From an uncultured Actinomycetes bacterium (GTDB lineage Bacteria > Actinomycetota > Thermoleophilia > UBA2241): a DNA stretch of 64,000 nucleotides. Each line of letters opens with the position of its first letter. Within the stretch, counting starts at the first letter, position 1. The translations under genes and the position numbers were made by a program. The notes beneath the pieces are model-generated. The model was not told where the DNA came from. It saw nothing but the letters and a program-made list of their open reading frames with translations, and did not search any database. This document shows, one piece after another, positions 49,623 through 57,154 of this stretch. The stretch lies in NCBI GenBank assembly GCA_963725665.1, contig CAVRZA010000002.1, forward strand, positions 96,001 to 160,000. Reading direction: 5' to 3'.

Positions 49623-49707
49623 GCCGGAGTGGCGGAACTGGTAGACGCGCGGGACTTAAAATCCTGTGGGACATGCGCCCGTCCGGGTTCAATTCCCGGC
49701 TCCGGCA
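49623..49707 (+). tRNA. tRNA-Leu (anticodon TAA), long variable arm
   Basis: GCCGGAG/CTCCGGC acceptor stem, anticodon loop CTTAAAA, GGTTCAATTCC T-arm; 3' end reads ACCT so CCA is incomplete. Confidence 0.96.
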
Positions 49708-49794
49708 CCTACTTTCACCTGCAAATGAGCCTTGCGCCAGTCTCGGCTCCGTTTCTACTAAGTCGGTAACTGCGCACACTGTGCGCACACGCCC

Positions 49795-49921
49795 TCAGTG
49801 GCCCTCGAAGATGAGCGCCGCCACCTTGGTCGCGGCCTCCTCCTGCATGTCGGGTAGAACGTGGCTGTAGAGGTTCAGCGTGATCGCTGTCGTGGAGTGG
49901 CCGAGCATCTCCGAGACCACC
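49795..49921 (-). pseudogene. Tyrosine recombinase / integrase C-terminal fragment
   Basis: VVSEMLGHSTTAITLNLYSHVLPDMQEEAA matches the LGH...Y catalytic box; the rest of the gene is missing. Confidence 0.88.
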
Positions 49922-49939
49922 AGAGAGGAGAACACGATC

Positions 49940-50390
49940 ATGTCTACATCGATCAACAACGTCACGCTGGTGGGCAACCTCACCCGCGATCCCGAGACGC
50001 GCGCCGCCGGCACTACGACGGTCTGCAGCCTGCGCTTGGCCGTCAACGACCGCGTCAAGGACCCCGCCACGGGGGAGTGGGGCGACCGCGCCAACTACTT
50101 CGACGTCGACGTCTTCGGCTCCCGGGGCGATTTGTGCGATTAGTACCTCCGCAAGGGCCGTCAGGTGGCCGTGCAGGGCAAACTGTGCTACCGCGAGTGG
50201 ATGGCCAAGGACGGGCAGAAACGCTCCGCCGTCGCCATCGTGGCCAACAACGTGCAGTTCATCGGGCCGCGCGAGGGCGCCAGCACCACGGCGACCGCGG
50301 GGGCGCGGCCAGCACAGACGGCTGTGCGGCCGCCCTCACCGATGACCTCGCCGCCGCCGAGGACGCCGAGGACGGGATATCCCGTTCTGA
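49940..50390 (+). pseudogene. ssb: Single-stranded DNA-binding protein pseudogene
   Basis: INNVTLVGNLTRDPE, YLRKGRQVAVQGKL; in-frame TAG at 50141-50143; acidic tail and DIPF* (50376-50390) out of frame. Confidence 0.9.
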
Positions 50391-50654
50391 CGAGATGCGG
50401 GCGACCTGCACACAGCCTGAGACGAAGATCCTGCGCGCCGTCGGCAGTCCCATCACTTTCTGCCGCCCCCCACCAAGAAGGTGCTCGCCCGGCACGGAGC
50501 CGAGCACAACGCGGCCGCATGAGCGCAACCCTGACGGAGGGGGCAGGCCCGCCGTCTCACTCAGGGTCGGCGGCCCTCGTCGTTCCCGCCACCTACATAG
50601 TTGCCGCTGGTATTGAGCGCTGTCTAGACTGCGGTTATTACTCGGGTGGTCGGT

Positions 50655-50763
50655 CCCCCGCCTGCTTCATGAAGGAAGCGCCCCCGCTGGGAGAGCGGGG
50701 ACGCTCGTGATGCGAGGGCCAGCCCTTTGGGGGGTACAAGCTGCTAACCCGTACGTAATAATA
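50655..50763 (-). ncRNA. Putative structured RNA, copy 1 (C-rich loops)
   Basis: Direct repeat with 52256-52362; minus-strand hairpins GGGUUAGC/GCUGGCCC and a 13-bp stem; TATTAT -10-like box at the 5' end. Confidence 0.55.
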
Positions 50764-52255: not shown

Positions 52256-52362
52256 CCCCCGCCTGCTTCATGAAGGAAGCGCCCCCGCTGGAGGGCGGGA
52301 GCGCTCGTGATGCGCAGGTCAGCTCCTTTGGGGGGATCACTGCTAACCCGAACGGGATAATA
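52256..52362 (-). ncRNA. Putative structured RNA, copy 2
   Basis: 36 bp identical to copy 1, rest diverged but stems preserved on the minus strand. Confidence 0.55.
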
Positions 52363-52497
52363 GTCGCACACCGGCGATCGGCCGGCAGACGGTGGCGCAC
52401 CCTTCCGGTACACTGGCGACCAGGACCTCGTCAGGCGCGAACGAAAGGACACCGCGTGGGGCTGTTGCGCCCTCCCGACGTCGCGCGCTATGCGCGC

Positions 52498-53070
52498 ATG
52501 GGTCACATCGACAAGCTGACCGAGGCGGCGCGCAGCAAGCGCTGGCCCGAAGCTGCTATCGCGGCGCGGCGGGCGCTCGGGGAACACATGGACCTGCTCG
52601 TCGATACGCTGGGCAACAAGAGCATGCGCCGCGTCTTGACGGCCCGTGAGGCGCTCAAAGCCATCGGCCGGCCGGCCACCAAGGCCCTGCTCGACAAGAT
52701 CGACGATCCCACCAGGGAGCGTCGTCAGGACGTGGTGCACGCGCTCGGGGAAGTAGGCGATCCCTACGCGGTCAAGGCGCTGGTCGAGCGGCTGCGCGAC
52801 CCCGACGGCTTGGTGCGCCAGCTCGCCTGCCGCGCCCTCGCCAAGATCGGCGATCCGCGCGCGCTCGCGCCGCTGCGGCGCGCCGCCGCCGCCGACCCCG
52901 ACGACTCGGTGCGCAAGACGGCGGCCGAGGCGGCGCGCCGGATCGAGAAGCGCTCCAGCGTTGCCGCGAGCCGAGCCGGGGGCGCCGCGGCCGATTCGTC
53001 CCCATCCGAACAGCCGACCGGCCAGGAGGACGGTGCCGGCGAGGCCGAAGACCAGGAGGAGCGTCCGTGA
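52498..53070 (+). CDS. HEAT-repeat (PBS lyase-like) protein
   Basis: Repeats ALKAIGRPA, ALGEVGDPYAV..L.DPD..VR, ALAKIGDPRAL, DPDDSVRK.A; start set to ATG 52498. Confidence 0.88.
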   Translation: MGHIDKLTEAARSKRWPEAAIAARRALGEHMDLLVDTLGNKSMRRVLTAREALKAIGRPATKALLDKIDDPTRERRQDVVHALGEVGDPYAVKALVERLRDPDGLVRQLACRALAKIGDPRALAPLRRAAAADPDDSVRKTAAEAARRIEKRSSVAASRAGGAAADSSPSEQPTGQEDGAGEAEDQEERP

Positions 53071-54068
53071 CACCAGTGCGCCGCATCCAGGAGGAGCACG
53101 GCATCGTGGGGCGGGACCGGGAGCTCGCCCTCTCGCTGGCCGTGCTGGCGCGGGGCAGGCACCTGCTGCTCGAGGGGCCGGTGGGCGTCGGCAAGACGAC
53201 CGTCGCACTCGCCGTATGCCGCCACCTGGGCAAGCAGACGGTGCGTGTCGACGGGGACGACCGCTACTCCGAGAGCAAGCTGACCGGCTGGTTCGACCCG
53301 CCGCTGGTGCTCAAGCGTGGGTACTCCGAGGAGTCGTTCTTCCCGGGGCCGTTGGTGCGCGCCATGCGTGAGGGGGGTGTCCTCTTCATCAACGAGCTCA
53401 ACCGCATGCCGGAGTCGGTGCAGAACGTCCTTCTGCCGGCGCTCGACGAGCGTCTCGTGATCGTGCCCCATATCGGGGAGGTGCGCGCTGCCGAGGGCTT
53501 CCAGGTGGTCGCCACGCAGAACCCAGTGGAGTACATCGCCACTGGCCACCTCTCGGAGGCGCTGCGCGACCGCTTCGAGCACGTCGCTCTCGAGTACCAG
53601 AGCGCCGAGGAGGAGGCGCGCATCGTCGCCGCCGAGACCGGCAGCGACGATGCGCGCCTCATCGTGCGGGCCGTCGCCGTCGCTCGAGCGACGCGGGCTC
53701 ACCCCGGGCTCAAGAAGGGCGCCTCGATCCGCGCCGCCATCGCCACGGTGACGATCGCCGAGGAGCTCGCCGCCGAGGGCGGCTTCGCGGGACTTGCCGC
53801 GGCGTCCGGTGCCGGCGAGCGACGCCCGGACTCGATAGCGGCCGACGACCAGGCGGAACCCCGCGGATCGGCGCCGCCGGATGACGACCTACGGCTACTG
53901 CGCCTTGCGGCTGGGGCAGCCCTGCCGACGCGCATCGAGCTCGCCGGCGACGCAGACGCGAGCCTCGACGCCGTCATCGACGATATCTGCGCGGCGGTGG
54001 CCGCCGACGCCGACGCGGCGCTGGCGGCCTTCGCGGCGGCGAGCGCCGCGGCAAGAAAAAAAGGCTGA
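53067..54068 (+). CDS. MoxR/CbbQ-like AAA+ ATPase
   Basis: Walker A GPVGVGKT, variant Walker B VLFINE, ATQNP, LSEALRDRF. Confidence 0.92.
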   Translation: MTPVRRIQEEHGIVGRDRELALSLAVLARGRHLLLEGPVGVGKTTVALAVCRHLGKQTVRVDGDDRYSESKLTGWFDPPLVLKRGYSEESFFPGPLVRAMREGGVLFINELNRMPESVQNVLLPALDERLVIVPHIGEVRAAEGFQVVATQNPVEYIATGHLSEALRDRFEHVALEYQSAEEEARIVAAETGSDDARLIVRAVAVARATRAHPGLKKGASIRAAIATVTIAEELAAEGGFAGLAAASGAGERRPDSIAADDQAEPRGSAPPDDDLRLLRLAAGAALPTRIELAGDADASLDAVIDDICAAVAADADAALAAFAAASAAARKKG

Positions 54069-54099
54069 GCGGCGGCAGCCGCCGCACCGGCGTCCCGGT
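54056..54099 (+). promoter_or_regulatory. Candidate -1 ribosomal frameshift signal
   Basis: A_AAA_AAA heptamer (54056-54062), 6-nt spacer, hairpin GCGGCG-GCAGC-CGCCGC (54069-54085), then ACCGG-CGTC-CCGGT. Confidence 0.55.
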
Positions 54100-54139
54100 C
54101 AGGGAGTACCGCCCGGCTCGTCGTCCCGACACCGGGTCT

Positions 54140-54988
54140 GTGGGCCGCGGCGAGGTGCTCGCCGCCTTCGCCGAGCGCTACGGGATGACTCTCGAGGGTC
54201 TCGACGGCTGGGCGATCGCCCAGACGATCACCCGGCGTGGCGGCGCCGGTCTTGACGCCAACACGCGCGAGGTGGCCATGGGCATGGCCGCCGAGGCGGT
54301 CCTCGAGCATGCAGTGCGACTCGTCGGCCCGCTGCGCGCAGCGACCAGGCTGACGGCGGAAGCCATGATCGAGCCCCACGAGGGCGACTTCGACGTCGAG
54401 CGCACGTTCGAGAACGTGCTCGGCAAGGAGTTCCCGGAGCCCGATGACTGGGTCGTCGAGCGCCGCCGCGAGCGCCGTCAGCAGGTCGTCCTCATGATGG
54501 ACACCTCGCTTTCGATGGCCGGGCCCAACATGGCGGTGGCCGCCGTGGCGGCCGCCGTCATGGCTCTGAAGCTGCACCCGGGCGACCTGTCGCTGGTCGC
54601 TTTCGAGACAACGGCGGAGGTGCTCAGTCGTCTCGAGGATCCTGTGCCGGCCGAGTGGCTCGTGCGGCGCATGCTTGAGAGACCCTGCAACGGCTACACG
54701 AACATCGAGGCCGCGCTCGAGCTCGGCGCCATCGAGCTCGAGCGCGGTCGCAATCCACGTCGCGCGGGTCTCCTCATCACCGACGGTGTGTACACGGCCG
54801 GCGGCGACCCGCTCGAGGCGGCACGGTCGTTCACTCGTCTCTATGTCATGCTGACGGCTGACTACAAGATGAATCCCGAGCTGTGCCACGCCATGGCGAA
54901 GGTCGGCGGAGGCACCGTCTTTCACGTCGAGGACTTCGGCGAGCTACCGCGGCGCATGCTCGACGTGGCCGACCACGTGCTCAGGTAG
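54140..54988 (+). CDS. von Willebrand factor A (VWA) domain protein; its frame is open back through the slippery site
   Basis: MIDAS DTSLS, GYTNIEAAL, LITDG; in the -1 frame relative to the ATPase; no clear SD at 54140. Confidence 0.9.
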   Translation: MGRGEVLAAFAERYGMTLEGLDGWAIAQTITRRGGAGLDANTREVAMGMAAEAVLEHAVRLVGPLRAATRLTAEAMIEPHEGDFDVERTFENVLGKEFPEPDDWVVERRRERRQQVVLMMDTSLSMAGPNMAVAAVAAAVMALKLHPGDLSLVAFETTAEVLSRLEDPVPAEWLVRRMLERPCNGYTNIEAALELGAIELERGRNPRRAGLLITDGVYTAGGDPLEAARSFTRLYVMLTADYKMNPELCHAMAKVGGGTVFHVEDFGELPRRMLDVADHVLR

Positions 54989-57154
54989 CCGACTCCGGCG
55001 CCTCCGCGCCCGGCAGCAGCTCCTGCCTTGCGCTCTCTGCCTCGGGCGGCTCGACCGACTCGCCCTGCCTCGTCCAGCGCCTGCCCGGCCAGCCGGCCAC
55101 CGGCCCCACGGCCAGCGTAAGCCCCGGCACGAGGGCCGTGCGCACGAGGAAGGTGTCGATGAGCACGCCGATGGCCACCCCGATGCTGATCTCGACGAGG
55201 TCCTTCACGGGCTGCGAGAGCAGGATCAAGAAGGTCCCCGCGAGGATGATGCCGGCGCTCGTGAGCACGCCGCCGGTCGCCGACAGCGCCCTGACCACGC
55301 CGTCCTTCAGGCCCCTGGCGAAAGCCTCCGAGCGGATGCGCGTCGTGATGAAGATGTTGTAGTCGCTGCCCAGCGCGACCAGGAAGATGAACAGGTAGAG
55401 CGGGATGCGGTAGCTGATGTGCTCCCAGCCGAAGAGCTTCTCCGTGATGAGGATGGTCGCTCCGAGCGCGGCCAGGTACGAGAGCACGTTGGTGAGCAGC
55501 AGGTAGGCGGCGGCGACGATCGCCCGCAGCAGGAGGGCGAGGATCGTGCCCACGACGATCAGAGCGGCGATGGCGACGATGATGGTGTCTCTGTTGGAGA
55601 GCGCCCACGTGTCCGCCTGCGTCGCGCTGGGACCGCCGACGAGGGCCGTCCCGCCGGCCGACGCCGCGACGCCGCGCACGGTCTGGCGCAACTCACGCAC
55701 CTGCTCGAGGGCGGCGCTCGAGTAGGGATCGCCCTTCAGGATCACCTGGAAGCTCAGCAGCGTGCCGCTGTCGGCCACGCCCGTGGGGAAGGCGACGGCG
55801 ACGGCCGGGTTCTTGCTCAAGGCGCCGACGACCGCACCCGAGACCTGCTGCACGCCGGCTTCGCCGCCGGCCGGTGCGGCCGGCAGCTTGACCAGGATGG
55901 TCGTGGGCGCGAGCGCGCCCTTGGGGAAGTGCTTCTCGAGCAGCGCGTAGCCCTGCTTCGAGGGCATGTTCCTGAGGAAGTCCTCGGTGAAGCTGAAACG
56001 TGGGCTGTAGAAGAGGCAGCCCAGGGCGAGTACGACGAGGATCGCCGTGACGGTCGCGGCGGCCCGCTTCGGGCCCGCCGCGACCAGGCCGGCGATCCTC
56101 TCCCAGGCGCGATGCCGCGCTGGCGTCGCCCGCGCGCGGCACGCGTGGCCAGAAGGCGCGCCGCCCGAGCAGGGCGAGCAGCGCCGGCATCAGCGTGAGA
56201 CCGGCGATCAGGGTCACGAACACGCCGAGGCCGAGCACGGGTGCGAACCCTTTGTACTCGCCGTACGTGGCGAACAGCAGCGTGAGCACGGCCAGCGTCA
56301 CGGTGAGGCCGCTGGCCGCGATCGCCTCCCATGTCTCTCCCAGCGCCGTCGCCAGGGCCACGCGGTGGTCGGCCTCGCGGCGCAGCTCCTCGCGGTAGCG
56401 CGAGATCAGCAGCAGGGCGTAGTCGGTGCCGGCGCCGAAGAGGAGGATGACCATGAGCGAGGTGGCCTGGCCCGAGAGGGTCGTGCCCATCGCCGTGGCG
56501 CCCGCCGCCAGTATCCCTCCGGCGACGAAGTAGCCGAAGCCGACCGTGACCAGCGGCACGAAGGGCAGGATCGGCGAGCGGTAGATGAGAAGCAGCAGGA
56601 TGAGTACCAGGACGACGGTGCCGACGAGCAGCTTGATGTCGGCGTTAAGGAAGATCTCGTAGACGTCGGTGATGAGACCGCCGGGGCCAGTCACGCGGAC
56701 CTGCATCCCCCCGATCTGGTCGCCGAAGTGCGTGCGGATCGCCTTCACGGAGTCACGGAACGGACCCTCCCCGGGGTTGCCGGTGAGGGTGGCGAAGACC
56801 AGGGCTCCCTTGCCGTCGGGCGAGTAGCTCGACGCGCGTGCTTGTTATGGGCTCGGCGCCGCTCTTCAGCCACGCCTCTCCCTGCGCGATCGCCGCCTTG
56901 TCCGCGCTCGTCAGGGGGGCGTCTGAGCTGTAGACGACGATGATCGGCGTGCCCCTCGACTGCGGGAAGGATGCCTGCTGCAGCGCGTCGGCACGCTTGG
57001 CTTCGACGCTCGCCGGCAGTGAGCGTGAGGCGTCGTTGCTCGTGACGCTCTGCAGCTTGGGGCCCATCGCCAGGGCGCCGGCGATGAGCACCCACAGGGC
57101 GACGACCAGCCACGGGTGCCAGCCGCGGGTAGACCAAGTGATGAGTCGGCGCAT
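54981..57154 (-). pseudogene. MMPL/RND family transporter with two frameshifts (~56835 and ~56115); pseudogene or sequencing error
   Basis: MMPL motifs VTGPGG, FGAGTDYALLLISRYREE, ALGSDYNIF, TGGVLTSAG spread over three ORF segments. Confidence 0.8.

Follow-up and report, generated by a model that had tools for sequence, protein, structure and literature searches.

Organization of the HEAT-ATPase-VWA locus

The stretch analysed here, hereafter the window, comprises 64,000 nucleotides (nt) of contig CAVRZA010000002.1 from an uncultured Thermoleophilia bacterium (assembly GCA_963725665.1), and a plus-strand three-gene unit at 52456-54988 of this window holds the reading frames of a HEAT-repeat protein, a MoxR-class AAA+ ATPase and a VWA-domain protein. 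Comparison of the locus with its relatives indicates that the ATPase and VWA frames very probably form one recoded gene, which would give a short ATPase and a long ATPase-VWA product through a -1 ribosomal slip at a cassette of slippery heptamer, stop codon and hairpin. The features of the unit are listed below (ORF, open reading frame; aa, amino acids; bp, base pairs).

52456..53070, plus strand: HEAT-repeat protein gene (Pfam HEAT_2, 74.3 bits; ORF list; sequence)
53067..54068, plus strand: MoxR-class AAA+ ATPase, 0-frame ORF of 333 aa, the short product (Pfam AAA_5; PDB sequence matches)
54056..54062, plus strand: A_AAA_AAA, a slippery heptamer with X_XXY_YYZ phase relative to the ATPase frame (sequence)
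54063..54068, plus strand: six-nt spacer, made up of the codon GGC and the 0-frame stop TGA at 54066-54068 (sequence)
54069..54085, plus strand: candidate frameshift stimulator, a stem-loop (7 bp, 3-nt loop) that begins 6 nt past the heptamer (folding; stem profile)
54062..54988, plus strand: -1 frame continuation of 308 aa, with a short linker, three N-terminal helices and a VWA domain (translation; Pfam; alignment; model; fold matches)

The HEAT gene starts at GTG 52456, with AGGA 6 nt upstream, or at ATG 52498, and its stop (TGA 53068-53070) shares a GTGA overlap at 53067-53070 with the ATPase start. The ATPase carries an AAA_5 domain (86.9 bits against a Pfam cut-off of 22) and a Walker A motif at 53175-53198 that reads GPVGVGKT in 120/120 homologues, the stretch from about residue 235 to residue 333 is a low-complexity linker, and its 3' end reads GCA AGA AAA AAA GGC TGA. 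The VWA frame lies at -1 relative to the ATPase and is stop-free across the slip site; read from 54062, it runs for 308 aa to the stop TAG at 54986-54988, is assigned VWA_CoxE and VWA_2 by Pfam, and contains a MIDAS (metal ion-dependent adhesion site) with its DxSxS motif at 54500-54514. The MIDAS residues (DxSxS, T and D) are identical in 14/14 aligned relatives. Joined to ATPase residues 1-332, the -1 frame would give a long product of 640 aa beside the short one of 333 aa.

A first-pass annotation, made from the letters of the window alone, had proposed a candidate programmed -1 frameshift here, and the sequence comparison reported below supports that reading. The particulars on which it drew, namely the GTGA overlap, the ATPase 3' end, the position and phase of the heptamer, a -1 frame open into the VWA domain, an intact MIDAS, and products of 333 and about 640 aa, were all recovered from the sequence. 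It had further remarked that the A7 run and the AGA/AAA codons stand out, and they do: the ATPase has just two AAA codons and one AGA codon, all of them within the cassette, and the A7 at 54056-54062 is the sole run of at least seven A or T in the whole 64 kb. An Rfam scan at an expectation value (E) of at most 1 found no family at the cassette, its matches elsewhere being a tRNA at 49623-49707 and a chance miRNA match.

Conservation of the cassette among relatives

A search with the VWA part matched 27 of 41 genomes, including all 24 sampled genomes of the window's family, and among 29 loci holding both the ATPase and the VWA part, the VWA lay in the -1 frame, open across the ATPase stop, in 25. 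A scan of species-representative genomes added 79 loci, mostly from Thermoleophilia metagenome-assembled genomes (MAGs), and 65 loci holding both parts were examined for their junction. Within the window's family, the cassette was found in 23 of the 24 sampled genomes, the 24th having a fused gene. Among the 65 loci, an in-phase heptamer in the correct frame relation was present at 48 distinct junctions and 7 duplicates; the 48 comprised 27 C_CCA_AAA, 20 A_AAA_AAA and 1 A_AAA_AAG. The junctions share one pattern, in which the heptamer is followed by one codon, the stop, and then a GC-rich inverted repeat. Exactly one codon separated the heptamer from the 0-frame stop in 45/48 junctions, and the stop itself was TGA in 42, TAG in 5 and TAA in 1. 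The role of this nearly invariant stop may be to define the short product or to aid the shift.

The loci that carry the cassette come from Thermoleophilia, from three Spirochaetota MAGs (L056, L063, L068) and from an Armatimonadota MAG (L067). On the VWA tree, these four, as well as L031 (labelled Deltaproteobacteria), nest inside Thermoleophilia diversity, a placement suggestive of horizontal transfer or, for L031, of mis-binning. The distant relatives L070 and L075 have no slippery cassette at the junction.

The heptamer also appears to be maintained at the level of the nucleotides. When 13,663 further in-phase positions in these ATPase genes were scanned, 34 X_XXY_YYZ heptamers of any kind were found and 0 of the A or C type. 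In all 21 of 21 A-type cassettes, the codon preceding AAA AAA ends in A, against a third-position A background of 4.3% of 13,709 codons in these genes, and this codon is one of eight (AAA, AGA, CAA, CCA, CGA, GCA, GTA, TTA) that specify 7 amino acids; it is therefore the nucleotide that is selected, not the residue. On the tree of the VWA part, the heptamer type changes 8 times by parsimony (three states), with 2-3 changes forced by well-supported branches, and slipperiness is retained while the type switches. Judged from these comparisons, the cassette is conserved beyond what the protein would require.

Structure downstream of the putative slip site

A structure 5-9 nt downstream of the heptamer, as belongs to a -1 frameshift cassette, is present in the window as the 7-bp stem at +6 and is enriched in relatives. 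The first-pass annotation had placed two hairpins after the heptamer; the first stands at 54069-54085, whereas the second pairs 54087-54100, one base off the proposed 54086-54099, and is absent from the minimum-energy fold. RNAalifold, run on 22 junctions, predicted 0 pairs, since stems and loops of unequal length bring the 3' arms out of alignment when no gaps are allowed; a position profile of stems was used instead. In this profile, perfect stems of at least 6 bp with loops of 3-12 nt were recorded by their distance from the heptamer at offsets from -60 to +60. A perfect stem of this length starting exactly at +6 was found in 27/48 junctions (56%), forming the sharp peak of the profile, followed by +7 (46%; nested in the +6 stem), and the values were at most 25% at all other offsets and at most 21% upstream of the site. 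The stems vary in sequence from locus to locus (at least 8 different arm pairs), and the 36 nt after the site rank within the 5% most stable segments of that size in their own genes in 26/48 loci (median percentile 0.045). The first-pass annotation had made its proposal depend on whether homologues keep the A-run, the -1 offset and the hairpin: among the 65 loci, 48 distinct junctions have a slippery heptamer in phase, a 0-frame stop close by and an open -1 VWA frame, and 27 of the 48 have the +6 stem.

Candidate starts and reading frame of the VWA part

In the window, GTG 54140, GTG 54155 and ATG 54185 are in-frame candidate starts for the VWA, and none has a Shine-Dalgarno match, as had been noted earlier for GTG 54140. 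No ATG, GTG or TTG occurs between the heptamer and the conserved VWA N terminus in 8/48 loci; in the other loci, candidate starts lie at varying positions, mostly without a Shine-Dalgarno match. An independently initiated VWA gene, named earlier as an outcome that would speak against recoding, would have to do without a conserved start. The sequence right after the site was informative in a clade of 12 loci, where the 60-nt linker before the recognisable VWA has a third-position variation in the -1 frame of 0.415 versus 0.107 and 0.103, a constraint stronger than in the VWA N terminus itself. The one recurrent GTG of this linker is GTC in 3/12 clade loci, as expected of an internal Val codon. 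At the level of sequence, these patterns indicate that protein-level selection acts in the -1 frame right after the site.

Natural fusions and lineage variants

Fused forms of the two parts were sought among longer homologues, and 251 proteins of at least 584 residues were obtained when 8000 candidates were scored. Those listed almost all combine AAA_5 and VWA domains in a length of about 600-640 aa. A motif search for the junction peptide in the best 120 of the 251 flagged two proteins, of which only P0218 has the motif at the junction; P0123 carries a mutated junction peptide (by eye), and the remainder of the best 120 look like ordinary fusions. Walker A is retained among these 120.

Among the examined loci, L008, L033, L065 and L027 are in-frame fusions without a slippery site, and L008 and L033, which give identical match figures, appear to be the same locus. 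L033 is nested in a frameshift clade (SH-aLRT 100), and its gene order is a stand-alone ATPase without a slippery site, an SD-like (Shine-Dalgarno-like) stretch, and a 614-aa fused ATPase-VWA gene. Read from this gene order, the short and long forms in the L033 lineage are supplied by two genes. In L065, a fused paralogue lies beside a frameshift-type copy, which continues in the overlapping contig L032 with a C-type cassette. Some relatives have a tandem second ATPase-VWA unit: G021 (L005; G021:C2:229793-230638) shows two adjacent VWA matches, and G008 and G024 hold two loci each.

Alternative explanations

Several observations weigh against a single recoded gene. The fold of the hairpin region in the window has a z-score of only -1.58, with 18/200 shuffles equally stable, and the region is not unusually stable for 71% G+C; it is solely the position conserved across relatives that gives the window hairpin its significance. 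In 21/48 junctions, no perfect stem of 6 bp or more starts at +6, the RNAalifold result was negative, and 0/7 junctions with an A9 run have a stem of at least 6 bp from +4 to +9, whereas 28/41 A4-A8 junctions do. Four loci (L059, L064, L066, L069) have the letters of the cassette with a VWA match that is not in the -1 frame, and the loci are mutually related, so that all counts overstate independence. Moreover, the MMPL and SSB genes of the window are also split between frames, and the assembly or genome is therefore not free of frame breaks. This last point bears on the possibility of an assembly artefact or a recent mutation, in which case the true gene would be an in-frame ATPase-VWA fusion with A8, or a decaying fused gene. 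Besides the frame splits in MMPL (54981-56748) and SSB (49880-50710), the many in-frame fused homologues would fit such an origin. No public run holds the source sample, and the choice between A7 and A8, which the first-pass annotation had singled out, was examined on relatives' contigs: three independent contig records from two runs of two studies (X7 record 31, with 1 other letter in 151, and X1 records 3 and 4) bridge the A-run with 0 gaps, and no indels at 54056-54062 are listed in this comparison. Furthermore, the 48 distinct junctions that share the -1 offset stem from many assemblies, and no homopolymer exceeds 4 in 27 of them; the junction peptide encoded by the cassette was flagged in 1 of the best 120 fusions (P0218), with a mutated form in P0123. 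We consider an artefact highly improbable, and retain it at this low level instead of dismissing it because the window does hold the frame-split MMPL and SSB genes.

The hairpin-less A9 junctions bear instead on RNA polymerase slippage, by which one A would be added on the A-run in some transcripts and the frames thereby fused, whether in the window or in some members of the family. A long A-run lacking a stimulator is a usual mark of transcriptional slippage, and the absence of a stem in 7/7 A9 junctions fits a shift to this mechanism in those lineages, which belong to a few clades only. Sharma et al. state that AAAAAAA may cause mRNA indels by transcriptional slippage (PMC4066793). The 27/48 C_CCA_AAA junctions, however, have only four A's, too short a run for this, yet they keep the phase, the stop and the hairpin, and the window itself combines A7 with a hairpin at canonical spacing, leaving polymerase slippage an unlikely explanation. 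We regard it as similarly doubtful that the ATPase and the VWA protein are encoded by two separate genes, in which case the VWA would initiate at GTG 54140 or ATG 54185, possibly through reinitiation once ribosomes have terminated at the ATPase stop, and the -1 offset would be a relic of gene overlap. The window does offer three in-frame candidate starts, the distant relative L070 lacks a slippery site, and MoxR/VWA partners are separate in well-studied systems such as NorQ/NorD (PMC13036017). Two separate genes would nevertheless have to use starts that lack a Shine-Dalgarno match in the window, are unconserved in position and are missing altogether from 8/48 loci, and would leave unexplained the in-phase heptamer, the forced NNA codon and the protein-level selection right after the site.

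Read on the minus strand (54063-54083), the cassette gives a hairpin and then T7, which a consensus scan flagged as terminator-like; this is probably a by-product of the A7-type cassette. That the cassette is itself a transcription signal, either this minus-strand terminator or a plus-strand U-less terminator limiting read-through into the VWA, has a negligible likelihood in our judgement. The scan did flag two minus-strand terminator-like sites at 54083-54063, against 0.7 expected in shuffles; but the minus-strand run is only T4 in the 27 C-type junctions, MMPL, the neighbour on the minus strand, has its end some 900 nt off and does not keep its place next to the locus, and neither the reading-frame phase nor the missing start codons would be explained.

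Relation to NorQ/NorD, chelatases and known recoding sites

In a PDB sequence search, the ATPase matched midasin AAA modules, NorQ (E 4.7e-18) and CbbQ (E 5.4e-13); the VWA part matched nothing meaningful there, and 0 families in NCBIfam at E ≤ 0.001. The AlphaFold model of the VWA part (predicted local distance difference test score, pLDDT, 88.6) had as its best Foldseek matches the NorD VWA domains of NorQD complexes (E 1.2e-8, template-modelling (TM) score 0.55), with 9qhe_G, 9qhd_G, 9qh8_G and 9qh6_G as the top entries. The closest solved system is NorQ/NorD, in which, as described in PMC13036017 (PDB 9qh4-9qhg), a VWA finger enters the pore of the NorQ hexamer. The locus resembles NorQ/NorD and CbbQ/CbbO, where a MoxR AAA+ hexamer is paired with a VWA adaptor, in its ATPase sequence, VWA fold, intact MIDAS and adjoining VWA frame. 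It differs from NorQ/NorD in that NorQ and NorD are separate genes without recoding, in that NorD has a greater size and an N-terminal domain that binds the client, and in that the client of NorQ/NorD, cNOR, is known, whereas none is evident here and the flanking genes vary. Walker B differs as well: at 53382-53408 (ATPase residues 106-114) it reads LFINE, with Asn-Glu for Asp-Glu, in 120/120 close homologues, and the NE is present in 108/120 fused homologues.

Automatic annotation at JGI names these proteins 'Mg-chelatase subunit ChlD'. A chelatase identity was tried and rejected on the family models, with 27.4 bits for TIGR02031 (BchD-ChlD) against a cut-off of 499.55 and 23.8 bits for TIGR02442 (Cob-chelat-sub) against 779.45; the genome-wide best match to TIGR02442 in the window's genome had E 1.3e-8. 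The first-pass annotation had seen no chelatase genes in the window, and this extends to the whole genome: a search for CobN/ChlH (PF02514) gave 0 matches in this 97.5%-complete genome, the control search being positive in 5/14 genomes. In tblastn searches against 12 true ChlD loci of other Actinomycetota, only partial matches were obtained (best E 1e-7). From its sequence, the ATPase-VWA locus is not a chelatase.

The chlD precedent that the first-pass annotation had cited is nevertheless real (PMC3711429, PMC9227772). Frameshifting by -1 in 'magnesium chelatase' (chlD) genes occurs at A_AAA_AAR followed by GC-rich stems, reaching up to 63% in E. coli reporters (Antonov et al. 2013, PMC3711429; Atkins et al. 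2016, PMC5009743). Kuznetsov et al. (2022) reported fs-chlD genes and adjacent chlI + chlD pairs also in genomes without both pathways and the large subunit, with Spirochaeta thermophila and Brevefilum fermentans as pathway-less examples of fs-chlD in which chlH/cobN are absent and the function is stated to be unknown (PMC9227772). The frameshift mechanism and the logic of AAA+ and AAA+-VWA products are thus already published for chlD, including in genomes without chelatase pathways. Some of the published pathway-less 'chlD' genes may be members of this very ATPase-VWA family; the name Spirochaeta thermophila was absent from the best 120 homologues of a Spirochaetota family member. Like fs-chlD, the gene described here would give a short AAA+ and a long AAA+-VWA product through a shift to the -1 frame at a heptamer rich in A and followed by a GC-rich stem, has relatives in both fused and split (chlI + chlD in the chelatase case) arrangements, and has a C-terminal VWA with a MIDAS. 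Unlike fs-chlD, its ATPase is AAA_5/NorQ-like rather than ChlI-like, its genome has no CobN/ChlH, and its family has C_CCA_AAA in 27/48 junctions, a stop one codon after the site in 45/48 and a HEAT partner gene.

Recoding sites of dnaX (tau/gamma) and of IS3/IS1-family elements combine an X_XXY_YYZ heptamer ending in AAA or AAG with a 3' stem-loop at about 6 nt and yield two products. The present cassette shares with them the heptamer type, the 3' stem-loop at about 6 nt and two predicted products from one gene. It is unlike dnaX in that the shift shortens the dnaX protein and would lengthen the product here, and no conserved internal Shine-Dalgarno stimulator was seen upstream of the cassette when the junction sequences were inspected by eye. 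Both A_AAA_AAA and C_CCA_AAA are among the frameshift-prone patterns of E. coli according to PMC4066793, which also discusses sites of the dnaX and IS type. Literature searches that combined frameshifting with MoxR, VWA or AAA+ brought up no account of it in a NorQ-like family, and the excerpts of PMC7911831 and of a 2025 bioRxiv preprint on frameshifting contain no report of this ATPase-VWA family.

Neighbouring genes and features

HEAT homologues lie directly 3' of the VWA frame in 31 other loci, within one large clade; in the window, unlike in that clade, the HEAT gene is upstream of the ATPase. The genes flanking the loci vary (NlpC/P60, alanine dehydrogenase, FakA-like, Usp), only HEAT recurs, and no candidate client enzyme was evident among the neighbouring genes.

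Upstream of the unit in the window, a direct repeat of about 108 nt occurs at 50655-50763 and 52256-52362, its copies 1600 nt apart, with 36 nt identical and the remainder 80-87% alike; some 100 nt lie between the end of the second copy and the HEAT gene, and the repeat has no Rfam match at E ≤ 1. The tRNA gene at 49623-49707 (Rfam) is followed by a short minus-strand ORF that resembles an integrase C terminus by eye and has no Pfam match, and then by an SSB gene split over two frames (49880-50143 and 50165-50710). This region (49623-50710) may be the remnant of an integrated element. On the other side of the unit, an MMPL-family transporter gene on the minus strand (54981-57154) is split into at least 2 overlapping frames, 54981-55967 and 55693-56748, both assigned to Pfam MMPL, and is either a frameshifted gene or the product of an assembly indel.

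Proposed mechanism and implications

The reading that we favour, one recoded gene, implies the following course of events. Most ribosomes would read A_AAA_AAA and one further codon, terminate at TGA and release the 333-aa MoxR-type ATPase with its flexible tail. A fraction would pause with two Lys-tRNAs on AAA AAA and the hairpin, 6 nt downstream, at the mRNA entrance, slip back by one base and proceed in the -1 frame, yielding the 640-aa ATPase tethered to a VWA/MIDAS adaptor; at C-type loci, the slip would occur on Pro-Lys codons instead of Lys-Lys. We infer that slipping itself takes place, at some rate. The short and long products probably co-assemble, by analogy with NorQD, where a NorQ hexamer binds one VWA protein, with the ChlI/ChlD precedent, and with L033, whose two forms are arranged as neighbouring genes; in such a mixed ring, the frequency of slipping would set the share of VWA-bearing subunits.

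Beyond this, we offer, with more doubt than confidence, the possibility that the frameshift arose or was kept in a non-chelatase MoxR machine of the NorQ/NorD type, in which mixed rings would contain a fixed minority of subunits with a tethered VWA, and that the family moved between ribosomal slippage (heptamer and hairpin), polymerase slippage (A9 without hairpin) and gene duplication (ATPase plus fused gene) as ways to supply them. If this were true, setting stoichiometry by recoding would be a design principle shared by AAA+/VWA machines in general, and not a peculiarity of chelatases.

For annotation, the consequence would be direct. Current annotations split these loci into two genes, calling one 'MoxR-like ATPase' and the other, which has no start, 'Mg-chelatase subunit ChlD' or 'vWA protein', and reading them as one recoded gene would correct this for a whole bacterial family and for its relatives in other phyla. 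The two alternating heptamers, the near-invariant stop and the hairpin-less A9 variants provide material for recoding studies. Collectively, the family, with its natural variants, would offer a well-delimited system in which to ask what sets the proportion of motor to adaptor in MoxR/VWA machines, and would suggest that the frameshift logic of the chlD type is not tied to chelatases.

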